Source: Sphingobacteriales bacterium
Lineage (GTDB): Bacteria; Bacteroidota; Bacteroidia; Chitinophagales; JADIYW01
Direction of reading: 5' to 3'
Assembly (NCBI GenBank): GCA_016721245.1
Contig: JADKIQ010000009.1
Location: 102,733-166,732 of the forward strand
DNA: 64,000 nucleotides
Both the position numbers and the translations under genes were made by a program. The notes under the pieces were generated by a model. It saw only the letters and a program-made list of their open reading frames with translations, was not told the origin of the DNA and searched no databases. This document shows, piece by piece, positions 4,335 to 64,000 of this stretch (its first letter is position 1; every line of letters begins with the position of its first letter).

Positions 4335-4982
4335 CTATTTTTTGATTCTAATTTGTATTGCTTTGATGATCATTGGTAAAATAGAAATGAACACGATACC
4401 TAAAATGAATTTTTCAAGGTTTTTTTCTACAAAAGGAATATTTCCTAAAAAATAACCCACTATCGTAACGGAAGACACCCAGAGAATACCGCCTAAAATG
4501 TCATAGGGTAAAAAGGTCTTGTAATTCATTTTGCCTACGCCGGAAACAAAAGGCGTAACGGTACGTACAATCGGGATAAAACGGGCGATAATGATGGTTT
4601 TGGTGCCTTGTTTTTCAAAATAATTATGTACCTCATTTATCCATTCCGGATTTACCAGTGGTTTACCTTTGAATTTCCAACTGAGCACATGTTCGCTGAA
4701 ATATTTTCCTACAAAATAATTTAAGTTATCTCCGATAATGGCTGCCGCAATTAATAATGGTATCAGTACAAAAATATTCAGCCCTGATTGCTGTGCGCAC
4801 AATAAACCTGCGGTAAACAATAATGAATCGCCGGGTAAAAACGGCATAATCACTAGTCCTGTTTCTACAAAAATGATTAAAAACAAAATGGCATAAATTA
4901 AATTACCGTGTTCCTGAAACAGCTGTAATAAAACGTCTTTGGTGTGCGTTAAAAGTTCTAATAAAAAATGAATGTATTCCAT
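4335..4982 (-). CDS. DedA family membrane protein
   Basis: 215 aa, multi-TM, with typical DedA blocks (PFLPGDSLLFTAG, IIARFIPIVRTVTPFVSG). Confidence 0.8.
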   Translation of the reverse strand: MEYIHFLLELLTHTKDVLLQLFQEHGNLIYAILFLIIFVETGLVIMPFLPGDSLLFTAGLLCAQQSGLNIFVLIPLLIAAAIIGDNLNYFVGKYFSEHVLSWKFKGKPLVNPEWINEVHNYFEKQGTKTIIIARFIPIVRTVTPFVSGVGKMNYKTFLPYDILGGILWVSSVTIVGYFLGNIPFVEKNLEKFILGIVFISILPMIIKAIQIRIKK

Positions 4983-20775: not shown

Positions 20776-20806
20776 ATAGCTACACACAAGACGCTTGCTT
20801 ATATTT

Positions 20807-21556
20807 ATGAAAATTGATTTACTACGGAACTTGTTTCCACTATTATTTCTGCTGCTTCAGGGCTGTACGAATACCGCTGAGAAAAATACAAACACGAACA
20901 AGCAGGAAACAACTGCAACCGAAGTTCAAATTTCCGAGACAATCATTGCGCCCGAACATAAACAACACCAGGCTGACTTTGTACCACAAGGCTACAACAT
21001 TTTCGAGGAAATAAACGGCGACCTCAATAAAGACGGTATAGCCGACAAAATTCTTATCATCAAAGGCACCAGCAAAGATGAATTTTTTAAGGATGAGTAC
21101 CGCGGAGAACTCGACAGAAACCGCCGGGGTATTCTAATTCTGTTTAAGAAAAAGGAGGGCTATGATCTGGCCGCAAAAAACTACGATTGTTTCTCCTCGG
21201 AGAATGAAGACGGCGGCGTTTATTATGCACCCGAATTATCTGTAACTGCGGAAAAAGGAAAGCTCTGCATTCATTACGCCCACGGCAGATATGGTTACTG
21301 GACCTACACCTTCCGGTTCAAAAATTCCGATTTTGAACTGATAGGCTATGACTCCAGTAATAATAACGGCCCGGAAGTGAACAGCGAAACGAGCATTAAT
21401 TTCCTGACGAAAAAGAAATTAATAAGGCGGAATACACAGGAAGACGACAAAGACGGAGAAGCGGTATTTGAAGAAACCTGGGAAGATATAAAACTGGACA
21501 AGCCCTATAAATTATCAGAAATAAAAGACTTCGACGAATTAGAGGTAACGGAGTAA
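20807..21556 (+). CDS. hypothetical lipoprotein
   Basis: The ATG at 20807 gives MKIDLLRNLFPLLFLLLQGC (lipobox). A GDLNKDGIAD FG-GAP-like segment is present. No family recognised. Confidence 0.55.
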   Translation: MKIDLLRNLFPLLFLLLQGCTNTAEKNTNTNKQETTATEVQISETIIAPEHKQHQADFVPQGYNIFEEINGDLNKDGIADKILIIKGTSKDEFFKDEYRGELDRNRRGILILFKKKEGYDLAAKNYDCFSSENEDGGVYYAPELSVTAEKGKLCIHYAHGRYGYWTYTFRFKNSDFELIGYDSSNNNGPEVNSETSINFLTKKKLIRRNTQEDDKDGEAVFEETWEDIKLDKPYKLSEIKDFDELEVTE

Positions 21557-21797
21557 TTTGATAAAGTTATTTAAAAGACAAAAAAATCTTGTGGAAATGT
21601 CGTAGAAACAGTTTCAGAACATTTTGCCGACCTCAGCAAAATGGTAATTTTTAGATTTTAAACAGAATAAATTTATTTACGAATCAACAATGTTGCATAA
21701 ATCCATAGAATTTCCTTCGGATTGCAGCCTATTTTTATATAAGAGTTGCGTATATTTGATGAGTTAGCGGCAAGTTTAACGCATCACATAGACGACA

Positions 21798-22601
21798 ATG
21801 TTTACGACAAAGAGAATTAAAATAAAAAGCAACGATATTTACATCAGTAAGCATGGACTATTTGGACAAAAAACTGAAGAGTATTTGGGTGTATTAAGTT
21901 TCGACAATCCGACACCGACAATAAAAGTTTTTGAGAATAGCACATTGCTAAAGACTTTCAATATCGAAACGCTGACAACAAACTCTAATCTCACTGGACA
22001 ATACTTTCATATTTCGGTTAGGCTTTTAGAAAATGATGGTGTAATGATTGATGGCATCATTTCCAAGCATAATGACAAGCATCAATACTGGCAGGACAGC
22101 GACTATGAAGCAATAAGATTTCAACCTTTCTTTTTGACTACAGCCGACCTTGCGACAAGTCAGCGAATAATTGGTAAAGGAGTTTTTGAAAGAGGACTGC
22201 ATTATTCAGGGACAATAACACCGACAACAGTTCGTGTAATTTGTATTTGCGACAACTGCAATAAAAGTTTTACCGTTCAACATTTTCACGGTGGCTTTTC
22301 AGACAGTCAATATTTTTACTCGACCGACAGCAAACAGACATTGATTGTGCCTTACAACAAAATCAAAAACTTACCGACACATCTACAAAAAGAGGTTGAC
22401 GAAAAAATAATTGCACAAGTAGAAGCAGAACTTCCAAAGCCGACAAAGGGAAAAGGGAACTACCGTTATTACAATTCTTTTTGTTGTCCTCATTGTTTAA
22501 GTCCTTATATTGACTTTCAAAAAAATAAACAAATTAGACCGACAGAATATTATGGACTAAAATATATTAACGACAAATTCTACACACTTGATGAGCATTG
22601 A
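21798..22601 (+). CDS. hypothetical protein with a putative CxxC...CxxC zinc-ribbon
   Basis: 267-aa ORF with CDNC (ICICDNCNKSF) and CPHC (FCCPHCLSPY) pairs. No family recognised. Confidence 0.5.
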   Translation: MFTTKRIKIKSNDIYISKHGLFGQKTEEYLGVLSFDNPTPTIKVFENSTLLKTFNIETLTTNSNLTGQYFHISVRLLENDGVMIDGIISKHNDKHQYWQDSDYEAIRFQPFFLTTADLATSQRIIGKGVFERGLHYSGTITPTTVRVICICDNCNKSFTVQHFHGGFSDSQYFYSTDSKQTLIVPYNKIKNLPTHLQKEVDEKIIAQVEAELPKPTKGKGNYRYYNSFCCPHCLSPYIDFQKNKQIRPTEYYGLKYINDKFYTLDEH

Positions 22602-22757
22602 CATCATAGGACGAGAAAGAAAACCAGCCGCTAACAAAAAATTGGCAATAGTTGTGGTAGATTTGGTAAATTAAGATTTGTGCAATAAATTTAATTTGTA
22701 AATAAGTGATAGTTGGTGATAAACACGCACAACCATCGCCAATTTTCAACCGTTAAA

Positions 22758-22998
22758 AAATAAAAAAGAGCAGCTGACGCTGCTCTGTGGGTTTTTGTGT
22801 TTCTAGAAGGGGGGATTTTTTTGTTTCCAGAATTCAGGGTTGGGTTTTTTGTTTCGTTTCTTTGGGTTGTTTTTATGTTTCTAAACTTTGGGTCGGGTTT
22901 CAATGTTTCCAGCCTTTCGCTGTTTGATAATGTAAAGATGCAGCAAAACCAGCTCAAAATAAATTAAGCAGAAACGTAATATGTGACATGCTTATTTT
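22758..22998. repeat. ~235-bp direct repeat, copy 1 (terminator hairpin plus TGTTTC periodic array)
   Basis: Nearly identical to 23884-24115. Hairpin GAGCAGC-tgac-GCTGCTC at 22768-22785. TGTTTC starts at 22798, 22822, 22850, 22876 and 22904. Confidence 0.9.
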
Positions 22999-23061
22999 TC
23001 TATAAATTTTCCGCTGCGATTTCTCAATTATACGTAAGTTTGAATACATCAATTATCAGCA

Positions 23062-23856
23062 ATGCCTACCATAAAAATCAACAACTGCAATTATTATTAC
23101 GAAGTGCATGGCGAAGGCCCTGAAACCATTGTGTTTTCGCATGGTTTGCTGTGGAGCGGTTATTTGTTTCACAAACAGGTGGCGTATTTTAAAAACCGTT
23201 ACAGAGTCATCACCTACGATCACCGCGGACAGGGAAAATCGGAAGTAACAAAAACCGGTTATGATATGGATAGTCTCTACGAAGACGTGGCTTTGCTGAT
23301 AGAACATTTGCAGTTGGGTCCTGTACATTTTGCAGGGCTTTCCATGGGTGGTTTTGTAGCCATGCGTTTGGCAGCGCGCCGGCCGGATTTGCTGAAGTCG
23401 CTGATTTTAATGGAAACTTCCGCGCAACCGGAACCCAATACGCTGAAGTATACGTTTCTCACTTCTGTGGTGAAACTGCTGGGCGTGGGCGTGGTGGCAA
23501 AGCCGGTGATGAAAATAATGTTCGGCGATACTTTTTTGCAGGATGCCAGCAGAAAAATTGAAGAGATTGAATTTGAAACGGAACTTAAGAAAAATAAAAA
23601 AACGATTGTAAAAGCTGTGGAGGGCGTGATTCGCAGAAAAGGAATTGAAAACGAATTGGTAAATATAAAATGTCCTACGCTGATTATGGTGGGCGACCAG
23701 GATAAAGCCACCGTACCGGCAAAGGCAGAATTTATTCATCAGCATATTCCGCAATCCATACTCGTTTATATTATCAACGCCGGACATTCATCCAGTATTG
23801 AAGAGCCGGAACAGGTCAACAAAGCCATGGATGATTTTTTGAGAAATCCGTCCTGA
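23062..23856 (+). CDS. alpha/beta hydrolase (enol-lactonase / haloperoxidase-like)
   Basis: 264 aa. HGLLWSG oxyanion region, nucleophile elbow GLSMGG, and a C-terminal GHSSSIEEPE block. Confidence 0.8.
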   Translation: MPTIKINNCNYYYEVHGEGPETIVFSHGLLWSGYLFHKQVAYFKNRYRVITYDHRGQGKSEVTKTGYDMDSLYEDVALLIEHLQLGPVHFAGLSMGGFVAMRLAARRPDLLKSLILMETSAQPEPNTLKYTFLTSVVKLLGVGVVAKPVMKIMFGDTFLQDASRKIEEIEFETELKKNKKTIVKAVEGVIRRKGIENELVNIKCPTLIMVGDQDKATVPAKAEFIHQHIPQSILVYIINAGHSSSIEEPEQVNKAMDDFLRNPS

Positions 23857-23883
23857 TTTATTTTTAATAAGATAAATAAAAAA

Positions 23884-24115
23884 GAGCAGCTGACGCTGCT
23901 CTGTTGGTTTTTGTGTTTCTAGAAGGGGGGAGTTTTTTTGTTTCCAGAATTCAGGGTTGGGTTTTTTGTTTCGTTTCTTTGGGTTGTTTTTATGTTTCTA
24001 AACTTAGGGTCGGGTTTCAATGTTTCCAGCCTTTCGCTGTTTGATAATGTAAAGATGCAGCAAAACCCGTTCAATATAAATTAAGCAGAAACGCCATATG
24101 TGACATGCTTATTTT
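23884..24115. repeat. ~235-bp direct repeat, copy 2
   Basis: Aligns with 22758-22998 with about 9 differences by eye. It has the same hairpin and the same TGTTTC array. Confidence 0.9.
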
Positions 24116-24171
24116 CAATGATTAAAACAAGCCGAATTATCTTAATTCGAAAAAAAATAGTATGTTGAGAT

Positions 24172-24540
24172 ATGATAAAAGGCATCAGTATAACTGTGAT
24201 CATTGACGAAGTAAAAAATGAAGACAGTGTAACAGTGATAAAAGAGGCATTGTTAGAGGCATTGCCAAAAGAAACTCATTTTAAATCTGCAGAAAAATAT
24301 ACCAAGTTTGAAGATGCTTATAAACTGGAATTTGATATCGCAATTAAAGAGAGTATGCCTAAAGAAAAACTGACTTATCAGTTGCTGGTACTTACGGATT
24401 GCATTTCAAGACCATGGTCTGTTTACTTCGACAAGGAAGGTGATAATACAGAACTTATTTTTAACAGAGACAACAATACCAACTTCACTCAGCCTGTTTT
24501 TTCGCATATTCGCTGGGCACACATTCAATTGATTTATTAA
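24172..24540 (+). CDS. hypothetical protein
   Basis: 122-aa ORF. No signal peptide or family recognised. Confidence 0.4.
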   Translation: MIKGISITVIIDEVKNEDSVTVIKEALLEALPKETHFKSAEKYTKFEDAYKLEFDIAIKESMPKEKLTYQLLVLTDCISRPWSVYFDKEGDNTELIFNRDNNTNFTQPVFSHIRWAHIQLIY

Positions 24541-24633
24541 AACCATTTTACATCTCTTCTTGCTGCGTTTTTTATTTAAACACTACAACCATTTCCATCT
24601 TTTGTGTGTTACTCATTTTGTAACAGAAAAGAA

Positions 24634-25098
24634 ATGGAAAAAATAGCAGGTCTTATACAACAACTTGAAAAACACATTTCTAATGCAGCACTCATAAACC
24701 CTATTATTTCCGCCTCTTCTGTCGGATGGCAAATTGAACACAGTCTGCTAACGATTAACCGGATTATCGATCAGCTGAAAAAATCAGATCCCAATAAATA
24801 TAGCTGGAAATTCAGTATCGGCAGACTGATTATTCTGACCACCCAAAAAATTCCCAGAGGTAGAGCACAGGCACCAAAGATTGTTCAACCTAAAGATGAT
24901 ATCAGTTTCGAATGTCTGAATGCTTCTATTGAAACAGCTAAAGAAAGCATTCAATTGTTAACTACATTAAACAGAAATCATTATTTTGAACATCCGTATT
25001 TTGGTAAACTGAATGTAAAGCCTGCTATGCAGTTTTTGCAGATTCATACCCAACATCATCTCGCCATCATTGATGATATTGTTAGATCTACTAAATAA
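24634..25098 (+). CDS. DinB-superfamily protein (DUF1569-like)
   Basis: The ATG at 24634 (MEKIAGLIQQ). WQIEHSLL, HPYFGKL and HTQHHL blocks are typical of the four-helix DinB-like fold. Confidence 0.6.
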   Translation: MEKIAGLIQQLEKHISNAALINPIISASSVGWQIEHSLLTINRIIDQLKKSDPNKYSWKFSIGRLIILTTQKIPRGRAQAPKIVQPKDDISFECLNASIETAKESIQLLTTLNRNHYFEHPYFGKLNVKPAMQFLQIHTQHHLAIIDDIVRSTK

Positions 25099-25176
25099 AA
25101 AATAATCGTTTCAGTGGTTTCGGTTTAGCAACAATATCTTCACCTTTTAACTCTTTTCTTTTGCTTAAATTCGTGA

Positions 25177-25836
25177 GTGTCAACACCTGTAACTTATTTC
25201 ATAGGCGGTATTGCATCCGACGAGCGCATTTTCAAACATCAGATGGTGGCGGTAGAAAATGCCGTGTACCTGCCGTTTCCAAAACACGATAAACACGATA
25301 CAATGGAAACCTACGTGAAGAAATTCATTCCGTTCATCGATACAACAAAAGCGTTTAATCTCGTTGGAAACTCCATGGGCGGCATTATGGTGATGGAATT
25401 GATTAAACACGTGCAGCCGCAAAAAGTAGTGTTGATTTCATCTGTAAAAAGCCGGAATGAAATGCCCTTTATTTTAACGCATATGAAATATACCAATGCC
25501 CACAAACTGTTGCCGGGTAAGGGTTTTATCGGCTTCATACAGTTCGGAAGTTTATTTAAAAACGAAATATTGAAAGTGCCCGGTATGCGTCGGCTGGCCG
25601 TAAGTATGGCGAAAAGTAACGACCCGGATTTTTTATACTGGTGTGTGAATGCCATTATAAAATGGAACGGAAAAGAAGATTACCGCAAAGATATCATTCA
25701 TATACACGGCACGAAAGATGAAATGTTCCCGTACCGCAATATAAAAAATGCGATACCCGTGCAGGGCGGCACCCATTCTATGCTGCTGATTCATCATAAG
25801 GAAGTGAATCAGCTGCTGGCTGAAAGTTTGAAATAA
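25177..25836 (+). CDS. alpha/beta hydrolase
   Basis: 219 aa, GTG start, nucleophile elbow GNSMGG, and a late HGTKDEMFP / GGTHSML block. Confidence 0.7.
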   Translation: MSTPVTYFIGGIASDERIFKHQMVAVENAVYLPFPKHDKHDTMETYVKKFIPFIDTTKAFNLVGNSMGGIMVMELIKHVQPQKVVLISSVKSRNEMPFILTHMKYTNAHKLLPGKGFIGFIQFGSLFKNEILKVPGMRRLAVSMAKSNDPDFLYWCVNAIIKWNGKEDYRKDIIHIHGTKDEMFPYRNIKNAIPVQGGTHSMLLIHHKEVNQLLAESLK

Positions 25837-60845: not shown

Positions 60846-61206
<361 letters not shown>

Positions 61207-61644: not shown

Positions 61645-64000
61645 TTACAAACCAAAAACCTTTTCGTCAATCTCCTTAAAGATAACTTCGGTTTGGTTCA
61701 TGGTTTTGATGTTATCGTACACCAAAATTAAGCTGTTGCCGCTTTGTTTCAGGTTACATTTCTTTTTAGAATTCTGTATTTGTTCCATTACTTTCGGGAA
61801 ATACGGACTTTCATAATACGGTGATTTCGGATTGTCTAAAAAGTAACAACGCAGCTTACCGTTCTTTAAAATGATGCGCTCAAACCCTATTTTCTTAGCA
61901 ATCCAGCGGATACGCAATCCATCAAATAATTCATTGATTTGTTTCGGCAGTTTGCCGAACCTGTCTTCTATTTTTTTCGCAAATTTTTGCAGCGATTCTT
62001 CATTCTGAATTTCATCCAGTTCCGTATACAAACGTAAACGTTCATCCGTATTCAGCACATATTCCACCGGAATCAGCATCTCTACATCCGTATCAATCGT
62101 GCAGTCATACACAAATTGTTTTTGCTCTTCAATTTGTTCTTTAAAAACATCTTTGAAATCCGTGTATTTCAATTCCTGTATCGCTTCATCCAAAATTTTA
62201 TGATACATTTCAAAACCGATATCCGCAATAAAACCACTTTGCTCACCACCCAATAAATTACCAGCACCACGAATATCCATATCGCGCAAGGCAATCTGAA
62301 ATCCACTGCCTAAATCTGAAAATTCTTCCAGGGTTTGCAGGCGTTTTCGAGCTTCATCGGTTAAAGTAGATTTTGGCGGCGCCAGTAAATAACAAAATGC
62401 TTTTTTATTGGAACGGCCCACGCGACCGCGTAACTGGTGCAGATCACTCAACCCAAAATGATGCGCGTTGTTGATGATAATCGTATTGGCATTCGGAATA
62501 TCCAGACCGCTTTCCACGATATTGGTACTCAGCAACACATCAAATTCGCCATTGATAAATTGCAGCATAATATCTTCCAGCTGATCGCCTTCCAGTTGTC
62601 CGTGAGCAGATTTTATCGTTACATCCGGTACCAATCTACGCAGCATCACTTCCATGTCTATCAAATCTTTTACACGATTATGCACGAAATACACCTGACC
62701 GCCACGATACACTTCAAACTCGATAATTTCTTTAATCGTTTTCATATCAAACACCTGTACTTCCGTGGTAATCGGAATACGATTGGTGGGTGGCGTCATG
62801 ATGTTCGATAAATCACGCGCACCCATTAATGAAAATTTTAACGTACGAGGAATCGGAGTGGCGGTTAAGGTGAGTGTATCCACATTTGCAGAAAGATGGC
62901 GTAATTTTTCTTTGGCGGAAACACCGAATTTTTGTTCTTCATCGATAACGAGTAATCCTAAATCTTTAAACAATAATTCTTTGTTTAAAAGCGCATGTGT
63001 TCCGATTAAAATATCAATTTTTCCTTCTTTGGTTTTTTCCAGCGTTTCTTTTTTTTCTTTGGCAGATTTAAAACGATTTAAGAAAATCTACCACTACGCC
63101 TTGTTCTTTTAAACGGGCTGAAAACGTTTTAAAATGCTGCCAGGCCAAAATGGTGGTTGGCACTAAAATCGCTACTTGCTTTCGGTCGGTAACTGCTTTG
63201 TATGCCGCACGAATGGCAATTTCCGTTTTACCAAAACCCACATCGCCGCAAATCAGTCGGTCCATCGGATGTGGTTTTTCCATATCCGCTTTTACATCTG
63301 CCGTGGCTTTAATCTGGTCCGGCGTATCTTCATACATAAAACTCGCTTCGAGCTCATCCTGCAAGTAAGTGTCTTTGTGAAACGCGAAACCCGGAGCCAC
63401 TTTTCGCTGCGCATATAATTTTATCAGTTCGGCAGCAATATCTTTTACTTTGCTTTTCGTTTTGTTTTTCAGATTTGTCCATGCGTCGCTGCCCAGTTTA
63501 TTTATTTTCGGTACATGCCCTTCCTTGCCGGTATATTTGGAAATCTTATGCAGCGAGTTGATGTTGACATACAACAAATCCTGGTCTTTATAAATCAGAC
63601 GCACCATTTCCTGCGTTTGTCCATTCACGGTAATTTTTTCAAGACCGGAAAACGTACCGACACCATGATCGATGTGTGTCACATAATCTCCGGGGTTTAA
63701 GTCTTTCAGTTGACGAATGGAAATAGCTTTAGTTCTGTTGAAGCCTGCTTTCGTTTTGTATTTATGATATCGGTCGAAAATCTGATGGTCGGTATAACAA
63801 ACGATTTGTAAATCCTTATCAATAAACCCTTGTGCTAAATCGATATAACAAGGATGGAATTTGATTTCCGCTTTCTTATCTGCAAAAATATGTTGGAAGC
63901 GTTCTATTTGTCTGGGATTTTCGGCAAATAAAAAATTCTGAAAATGATTTTTTTGATGCTGCTGTAAATCCTGAATCAGCAAATCAAAGTTTCGTCCGAA
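61645..64000 (-). pseudogene. mfd: transcription-repair coupling factor Mfd, 5' end outside the window, split by a 1-nt frameshift at ~63077
   Basis: Track ORFs 63068-63982 (GDVGFGKTEIAIRAAYKAV, helicase motif I) and 61645-62973 (VIDEEQKFGV, TATPIPRT, QLRGRVGRS, TRG/C-terminal domain). The frame stays open to the window edge. Confidence 0.85.

Follow-up and report, generated by a model that had tools for sequence, protein, structure and literature searches.

The stretch of DNA analysed here (the window; 64,000 nt of contig JADKIQ010000009.1 from a Sphingobacteriales bacterium) carries two near-identical repeats of ~243 bp in direct orientation, located between nadA and orf219, a gene for a conserved 219-aa alpha/beta-hydrolase (25177-25836). 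We regard these repeats, units A and B, as candidate small RNA (sRNA) genes of the minus strand. Covariance-model boundaries placed unit A at 22757-23000 and unit B at 23873-24117, with scores of 309 bits (model R1) and 308.8 bits, respectively. End-to-end alignment of the units showed 8 substitutions and a single 1-nt indel (96.7% identity), in agreement with the nine or so differences counted by eye in an earlier reading of the letters alone (the sequence-only reading). The BLAST E-value of unit A against unit B within the 64 kb was 1e-113, which excludes chance as the origin of the repeat. The sequence-only reading had delimited copy A correctly, whereas its copy B (23884-24115) started ~10 nt too late, and the 1126 bp that it gave as the spacing has to be replaced by a start-to-start distance of 1116-1117 bp. 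As it had also noted, a single open reading frame (ORF) lies between the copies. This alpha/beta-hydrolase gene (23062-23856, plus strand) matched Pfam Abhydrolase_1 with an E-value of 1.3e-31, and its -7 box, TAAGTTTG at 23035-23042, is outside the unit. The hairpin AGAGCAGC-TGAC-GCTGCTCT, seen at the start of each copy, was located at 22767-22786 and 23883-23902. The opposite end, which had been put about 60 bp from a plus-strand ATG, was found 56-63 nt before the start codons at 23062 and 24172.

The pair is not an assembly artefact, because the units recur with their copy-specific differences in independent ENA, JGI, NCBI and Logan assemblies (about ten assemblies); the suspicion of an assembly duplication was thus not borne out. 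Short de Bruijn contigs end within the units, as a true repeat predicts. Unit A is conserved in every unit-bearing lineage. The whole interval from nadA to orf219 (20776-25176) is an accessory-gene hotspot, since in the related locus L038, where the orf219 protein is 70% identical, nadA abuts the 219-aa hydrolase gene directly (L038 1035-1057).

The distribution of the unit was surveyed with exact patterns, a 20-mer against 185,579 species genomes and a 22-mer against the JGI metagenome collection, which returned two and nine loci, respectively. A covariance model built from 15 units was also searched against 39 related loci and, with filters off, against the window. Every unit found by the pattern scans and the covariance-model searches sits between nadA and orf219, and the next-best model matches beyond the true units reached at most 17 bits. 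The window holds two units, and 1-2 were found in each of five lineages, among which the identity of the neighbouring protein falls as low as 79%. The closest named relatives are metagenome-assembled genomes labelled Chitinophagales bacterium, whose loci are 93.7% (L008) and 75-87% (L009) identical to the window. Plasmid and phage collections gave no unit match in blastn, so that a plasmid or phage origin was rejected. Rfam 15, which includes FopS, gave no match at the gathering threshold for the whole window, nor one beyond noise at E<=10 for the locus, on either strand; the best sub-threshold match, with 20.5 bits against a gathering score of 40, covered the hairpin only. The scan of both strands that had been proposed thus yielded no family, and assignment to a known RNA family was rejected as hairpin-level noise. 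With all copies at one locus and no plasmid, phage or Rfam match, the unit is therefore locus-specific, with 1-2 copies, and is neither a dispersed repeat nor a mobile element. The dispersed non-coding gene family suggested by the sequence-only reading is not supported by either public-collection scan or by the covariance-model searches. Its other remark, that the element is no recognisable insertion sequence (IS), miniature inverted-repeat transposable element (MITE) or attC, stands, as the unit bears no such signature. Weak BLAST matches at 60.85-61.2 kb, considered as a third copy, belong to an unrelated A/C-rich low-complexity stretch.

Alignments across five lineages revealed five elements in the unit, which are described here 5' to 3' on the minus strand. 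The first is an upstream box, AAGCnTGTCACA / AAGCnTGTCACAnAT (box 1), with the palindrome ATGTSACAT, and its core AAGCATGTCACA is invariant in all 12 representative units. Box 1 occupies 22979-22997 in unit A and 24096-24113 in unit B, both on the minus strand, and keeps a fixed distance from the 5' block. The second element is the intervening spacer, constant in length and poorly conserved, in which CTTAATnTA is retained in most clades. The third is the block GCTGCATCTTTACATTATCAAACAGCGAAAGGCTGGAAACAT (22903-22944, minus strand, in unit A), the most conserved part, which would form the 5' end of the putative transcript. It is near-identical in all clades except the most distant lineage, L025, and includes a small CAGC-loop-GCUG hairpin, the loop of which varies while the stem is retained. 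The fourth element is an A/C-rich body of 3-6 modules with the consensus YURGAAACA-nAAAAA-CCC (five in unit A, 22787-22902, minus strand), and the number of modules changes between lineages by whole-module indels. The 5' block and the body together (alignment columns 53-216) contain 46% A, 26% C, 17% U and 11% G, i.e. 72% A+C, and GAAAC occurs at seven positions in the unit. The body is predicted to lack stable structure; RNAalifold found no structure other than the terminator and two very small hairpins, and it found no compensatory pairs, so that a structured RNA was rejected. The fifth element, AACCCAnAGAGCAGCG-loop-YTGCTC, is directly followed by T5-7. In unit A this intrinsic terminator spans 22757-22786 on the minus strand, with the stem AGAGCAGC/GCTGCTCT at 22767-22786 and then TTTTTTATTTT at 22757-22766; in unit B it spans 23873-23902, with the stem at 23883-23902 and the T-run after it. 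The stem and the T-run are near-invariant across all lineages. Conservation breaks off sharply past the T-run and at box 1 in every lineage, next to unrelated flanking genes.

The level of conservation points to function. Between the window clade and the L014/L018 clade, the 4-fold degenerate sites of the hydrolase gene between the units are 47-51% identical, and the parts of the unit are 100% (terminator), 86-100% (box 1), 83-84% (body) and 57-67% (spacer) identical. This distribution is what would be expected of a small gene preceded by a control element, and not of neutral DNA. Moreover, the genes flanking the unit differ between lineages while the unit stays constant. The unit encodes no peptide, because seven of the eight distinct indels are non-triplet and no frame is open across all lineages.

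Several features of the terminator differ between the strands. On the minus strand, the terminator scan found an 8-bp GC-rich stem with a run of T6-7 immediately after it; when the plus strand is read, the T-run is interrupted and set off from the stem. A single stem position varies (T for C in L009, L018A, L010A and L013A), and the variant pairs as G.U on the minus strand but leaves an A.C mismatch on the plus strand. When the fold was compared with shuffled sequences, z was -3.5 for the minus strand and -1.4 for the plus strand. The sequence-only reading had envisaged a terminator at one end of each copy and a plus-strand promoter at the other. The hairpin with its T-run is better read as a minus-strand 3' end, and the far end appears to carry the upstream control box of the same minus-strand gene.

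Our reading, held with a probability of about 60%, is that the repeats are two paralogous copies, subject to gene conversion, of an undescribed candidate sRNA gene read from the minus strand. Box 1 (AAGCnTGTCACA) and the fixed-length spacer would be followed by a putative minus-strand transcript of ~170-190 nt, an unstructured A/C-rich RNA with 3-6 'GAAACA-A5-CCC' modules and a terminal GC-rich hairpin with a U-tail. The hairpin may at the same time act as a terminator in both directions and thereby serve the convergent plus-strand gene. Box 1 is a candidate promoter element or binding site of a regulator, common to the divergent hydrolase promoter, and as a regulator site it would serve that plus-strand promoter as well. 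Acting in trans, the RNA could titrate a single-strand RNA-binding protein via its reiterated modules or pair with G/U-rich targets; a decoy or multi-site pairing role is suggested by the fact that the modules are reiterated, single-stranded and A/C-rich.

Such a function would resemble in design that of CrcZ or CsrB-type sponges. CrcZ/CrcY of Pseudomonas, with A-rich 'CA' motifs, and CsrB/RsmY/RsmZ, with GGA motifs, are likewise non-coding RNAs, of a few hundred nt at most, with a repeated motif and an intrinsic terminator, and RNAs of this type are often paralogous within one genome, like units A and B. The closest likeness in A/C-rich unstructured character is CrcZ. However, the motif YURGAAACA-A5-CCC differs from both the GGA-in-a-loop of the Csr/Rsm RNAs and the AAnAAnAA of CrcZ. 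With no Rfam match and with GAAACA-A5-CCC modules in a predicted unstructured RNA, the unit falls outside the CsrB/RsmZ and CrcZ families; it may act like a sponge, but the resemblance is one of design only. The FopS/GibS-type sRNAs of Bacteroides, which are associated with RbpB (PMC11697453), differ as well. The consensus structure of FopS is represented in Rfam, whereas the unit has no match there, and FopS RNAs have one seed region, whereas the unit has 3-6 reiterated modules and occurs at one locus in 1-2 copies. PrrF1/PrrF2 and OmrA/OmrB are, like the units, near-identical adjacent sRNA genes in the same orientation that are homogenised by recombination. Unlike those pairs, units A and B have an opposite-strand protein gene between them, and there are one-copy natural variants without that gene. 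According to published reports, Hfq and CsrA are missing from Bacteroidota (PMC13370968), which rely on RRM-type proteins in their place (PMC13370968, PMC11697453). Post-transcriptional regulators are little known in this phylum beyond gut Bacteroides, and a conserved candidate RNA of environmental Chitinophagales would offer a handle to its binding partner.

Some observations weigh against a minus-strand sRNA gene. RNAalifold found no compensatory covariation, the sequences being too similar and the body unstructured. Inspection by eye upstream of the conserved block gave no TTG/TAnnTTTG, sigma-70 or sigma-54 match on the minus strand, and a scanner for sigma-70-type promoters returned no minus-strand match either; box 1 and the fixed-length spacer are what is present. 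The four sequences with the G.U variant may stem from one mutation spread by conversion, and the conserved 165-nt A/C-rich tract could reflect binding sites at the DNA level. The published motifs of Bacteroidota RNA-binding proteins (Bacteroides RbpB/RRM literature) provided no usable match. Finally, the single unit of L009, described below, is a mosaic and not a clean single-crossover chimera.

An alternative at the DNA level would make the unit an array of protein sites (TGTTTC/GAAACA repeats plus the TGTCACA palindrome) that controls the downstream plus-strand gene, with the hairpin merely terminating the upstream gene. We consider this unlikely. The position of each copy, 56-63 nt upstream of a plus-strand ATG, would suit such an array, as would that of box 1, ~40-60 nt upstream of the hydrolase TAAGTTTG box, and the spacings of 20-21 bp between some of the repeats. 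We also counted in its favour TTTACAttatCAAACA, which we take to resemble OmpR-type tandem half-sites; the conserved 5' block at 22926-22941 (minus-strand TTTACATTATCAAACA) presumably resembles tandem half-sites of this type too (TTTACAttttGAAACA in ompC C1). Nevertheless, the downstream genes vary by lineage (hydrolase, orf122, DinB, orf219) and the unit remains constant. The repeat spacings are irregular as a series (8, 20, 21, 5, 28 and 24 nt), and conservation extends beyond the motif cores to the C-tracts and A-runs. An array of sites also leaves the asymmetry between G.U and A.C and the well-placed U-tail of the minus strand unexplained.

Units A and B are paralogs that, judging from their substitution patterns, are kept alike by gene conversion. 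Clade-specific substitutions are common to A and B of one genome, which indicates concerted evolution. In the window, copy A has B-type bases at 22913-22932, where copy A of other strains differs, and in L004 it is copy B that bears A-type bases. In L032, homogenisation is confined to the promoter-proximal halves of A and B, and the distal halves differ. The L032 units (2529-2745 and 4664-4924) bracket a larger segment that comprises the hydrolase, a 670-nt gap and a 132-aa ORF, and unit B of this locus has extra modules.

The enclosed hydrolase gene has retained its TAAGTTTG promoter box in three clades. Between clades, the protein is 85% identical and the 4-fold sites are ~50% identical, which equals the divergence of the rest of the genome. 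Its GC content (0.40-0.48) is higher than that of the immediate flanks (0.31-0.36), as had been seen from the sequence alone, but GC does not mark the gene as foreign, since the housekeeping gene nadA is higher still (0.48-0.53). A foreign GC-rich insert was rejected, with GC below that of nadA and a divergence that tracks the genome. The idea of a repeat-delimited hydrolase cassette is not supported, given the gene's own promoter box, which lies outside the unit, and its divergence along with the genome. A tandem duplication of 'unit + hydrolase' was also rejected, as the 264-aa and 219-aa hydrolases gave a BLASTP E-value of 0.98.

Recombinational loop-out of the hydrolase, which the sequence-only reading had predicted from the geometry of the repeats, gained support from the A/B conversion tracts and from L009, a relative that matches the expected state of one remaining repeat and no hydrolase. 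L009 shares 92% identity with L014, which has the unit-hydrolase-unit arrangement, against only 76-83% between the window and that clade, and L009 nests inside a hydrolase-bearing clade. Its left flank is of the copy-A type (the attC-like site and AACCG^TTAAAA, with ^ marking the crossover point), and its right flank is of the copy-B type. At the terminator end, the L009 unit shows the A-type states that are derived in its clade (GTTGCTC, the CCCA-AGAGC deletion and T7), and the remainder is B-like or mosaic. Because the hydrolase diverged in step with the genome, its loss in L009 by unit-by-unit recombination is the most parsimonious explanation, and from this one natural variant we infer that homologous recombination between the direct repeats can delete the hydrolase. 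The more distant L025 also has a single unit; given that distant lineages such as this one carry one copy, the ancestral state was probably one unit beside the 219-aa gene. The locus may serve as a natural example of direct repeats that are homogenised by conversion and mediate the loss of the gene between them.

The region to the left of unit A is a slot of exchangeable genes. Strain synteny breaks exactly at two points, namely where unit A has its left edge and at a conserved island of 49 bp (21719-21767) with a perfect TAnnTTTG box. The promoter island, which resembles the left junction of an attI site (21719-21763, plus strand), has its -7 box, TATATTTG, at 21751-21758 and the crossover G at 21763, and it is retained in the window, L001, L010, L021 and L012/L017 beside unrelated downstream genes. 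In the window, it is followed by an integron-type gene cassette on the plus strand (21764-22752), which begins with TTAGCGG, contains a 267-aa ORF (21798-22601, no Pfam match) and an attC-like site, and ends with AACCG. The attC-like imperfect hairpin (22629-22758, plus strand; inverted repeat I2) consists of R'' CGCTAAC at 22629-22635, arms at 22638-22656 and 22728-22746, and R' G^TTAAAA at 22752-22758. Other genomes hold a dioxygenase gene (L001, L002) or an ORF of 219 aa (L021), 224 aa (L010) or 142 aa (L016) in the slot. Further cargo is a glyoxalase gene preceded by DUF3644 or a BfiI-like restriction enzyme (L012, L015, L017), a Crp-like gene with a fatty-acid hydroxylase (L018, L023), an MBOAT gene with a 316-aa ORF (L013, L022), and a Schlafen-type helicase with an S24 peptidase domain (L009). 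The 267-aa ORF of the window was found elsewhere in only two short contigs, where its surroundings match those in the window.

In the window, L001, L009, L010, L016 and L021, the slot gene is followed by an imperfect hairpin of 95-133 nt, a length within the 57-141 nt expected of attC sites. The hairpin sequence varies by lineage and the architecture is constant (nnnnAAC, helix, AACC, G^TTAAAA), with visible bulges. The decisive criterion for integron cassettes is the complementarity of R'' and R'; R'' was therefore compared with the reverse complement of an R' made up of the terminal G and the six bases that open the same cassette. The match was 7/7 in three unrelated cassettes, those of the window (CGCTAAC/GTTAGCG), L001 (CACTAAC/GTTAGTG) and L021 (GCCTAAC/GTTAGGC), and imperfect in L010. 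In the first three, each R' 7-mer occurs once, at the left junction after the promoter island. Folded as single-stranded DNA, the attC-like site of the window gave z = -2.7 for the bottom strand and z = -1.1 for the top strand. The exact R''/R' pairs in three cassettes are sequence-level evidence of integron-type cassette exchange at a Chitinophagales chromosomal site with no neighbouring integrase.

The slot thus shares with integron cassettes and clusters of attC sites lacking integron-integrases (CALIN; IntegronFinder 2.0, PMC9024848) a variable single ORF with a 95-133-nt imperfect hairpin and exact R''/R', a crossover at G^TT in either junction, a promoter ahead of the first cassette and better folding of the bottom strand. 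It differs in having no integrase in the 64-kb window, 1-2 cassettes, and some variants without attC; the ~243-bp unit itself is not attC. No integrase or recombinase was found among the 29 window ORFs scanned (~120 aa or more), a set that leaves aside ten window ORFs of >=230 aa, seven of which match L001 genes without a recombinase domain. Within 10 kb on either side of the L001 hydrolase gene there was no recombinase. An integrase in the window was rejected on the scanned ORFs, and with no intI beside attI, the mark of a complete integron, the slot is at best CALIN-like or a solo cassette site. Integrons are rare in Bacteroidota genomes, with very few reported in surveys (PMC9024848), and we found no report in the literature on integrons in Chitinophagales.

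Among the slot genes, those for the BfiI-like PLD restriction enzyme, the DUF3644 protein, a Bro-N protein and the Schlafen-type helicase-S24 fusion are defence-like (L015 144-1211, L012 97-1077, L017 26-871 and L009 76-1461). The glyoxalase segment starts like a cassette, with ...AAAACG^TTA(C/T)CAAGT (L003 1-62, L015 ~1380-1400 and L012 ~1180-1200, window-oriented); it has no 3' attC hairpin, and it meets unit A at the very position where the cassettes that carry attC do. In L003, its start (...AAAACG^TTAYCAAG) follows another attC-like 3' end, which shows that two-cassette arrays exist. To the left of the slot, a lipoprotein-like 253-aa ORF with its own terminator hairpin (20795-21556) is an insertion, relative to L001 and L002, between nadA and the promoter island, with no attC-like site.

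Unit A always comes after the last cassette, and its start, G^TTAAAA(A)T, is the distal crossover point. The likeness to a cassette junction drawn by the sequence-only reading is therefore partly apt: it suits unit A, which begins at the crossover of a strain-variable cassette slot, and finds no support for the hydrolase as a cassette delimited by the repeats. By integron logic, the start of unit A may be what was once the right half of the insertion site and has since been displaced, in which case the promoter island would abut the terminator of the candidate sRNA gene in the empty state. The coupling between unit A and the cassettes may be functional, or it may simply reflect selection that removes rearrangements damaging the RNA gene. 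A more ambitious proposal, which we hold only tentatively and think rather unlikely, is that the unit represents a new class of Bacteroidota regulatory RNA, an unstructured A/C-rich decoy of several modules for a single-strand RNA-binding factor (an RRM-type Rbp or Rho, for example), whose gene is coupled both physically and functionally to an integron-type platform without an integrase. The U-tail and terminator would then make up the right half of an attI-like site and, at the same time, the distal end at which the cassette array is fixed, and cassette capture, termination of cassette transcripts and expression of the sRNA would be linked.

The unit might also be a recombination site in its primary function, at which circular molecules of one gene plus a 243-bp unit integrate and excise. 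This portable module is quite improbable in our view. In its favour, both the glyoxalase and the hydrolase lead straight into a unit, without an attC, and a Campbell-type insertion has the geometry unit-gene-unit. L009 resembles the excised state, and the unit adjoins a genuine cassette site. However, the arrangement is restricted to two genes, of which the hydrolase diverged in step with the genome across clades and was not exchanged. No recombinase accompanies the unit in the window scan or around the L001 hydrolase gene, the copies never occur at other loci, and the unit lacks the dyad symmetry of attC-like sites. Moreover, the role of a recombination site does not explain the near-invariant terminator and U-tail.

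A cis-acting RNA element of the plus strand, i.e. a G/U-rich 5' leader or the 3' untranslated region of the upstream gene, is very hard to sustain. The unit does lie between plus-strand genes, and its hairpin also scores as a plus-strand terminator, but the plus-strand fold is no better than that of shuffled sequences (z = -1.4), the stem variant introduces an A.C mismatch on this strand, and Rfam has no match on either strand. Since the promoter box of the hydrolase is downstream of the unit and outside it, the unit is not part of the hydrolase leader. Finally, a MITE or IS-end remnant, a neutral segmental duplication and an assembly artefact each commonly yield near-identical direct repeats, but this explanation is effectively refuted by the lack of terminal inverted repeats, a target-site duplication, further copies, a transposase in the ORF scans and plasmid or phage matches, by conservation far above the neutral rate across clades, and by the presence of the unit in about ten independent assemblies.

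Two further features were observed near the right end of the window. The intergenic stretch at 60850-61200 is of A/C-rich low complexity, with a poly-A run of ~45 nt and tracts such as CCCCCAAAAATTTTTCCCCCCCAAAACCCCCAGGGG; it is unrelated to the unit and may be either an unusual but genuine spacer or an artefact of assembly or sequencing. Beside it on the minus strand, the gene for Mfd/TRCF (61645-63982) appears to be split into an ORF at 63068-63982 (CarD_TRCF_RID and DEAD) and another at 61645-62973 (Helicase_C and TRCF), which points to a pseudogene, a frameshift or an error in the sequence near that stretch.

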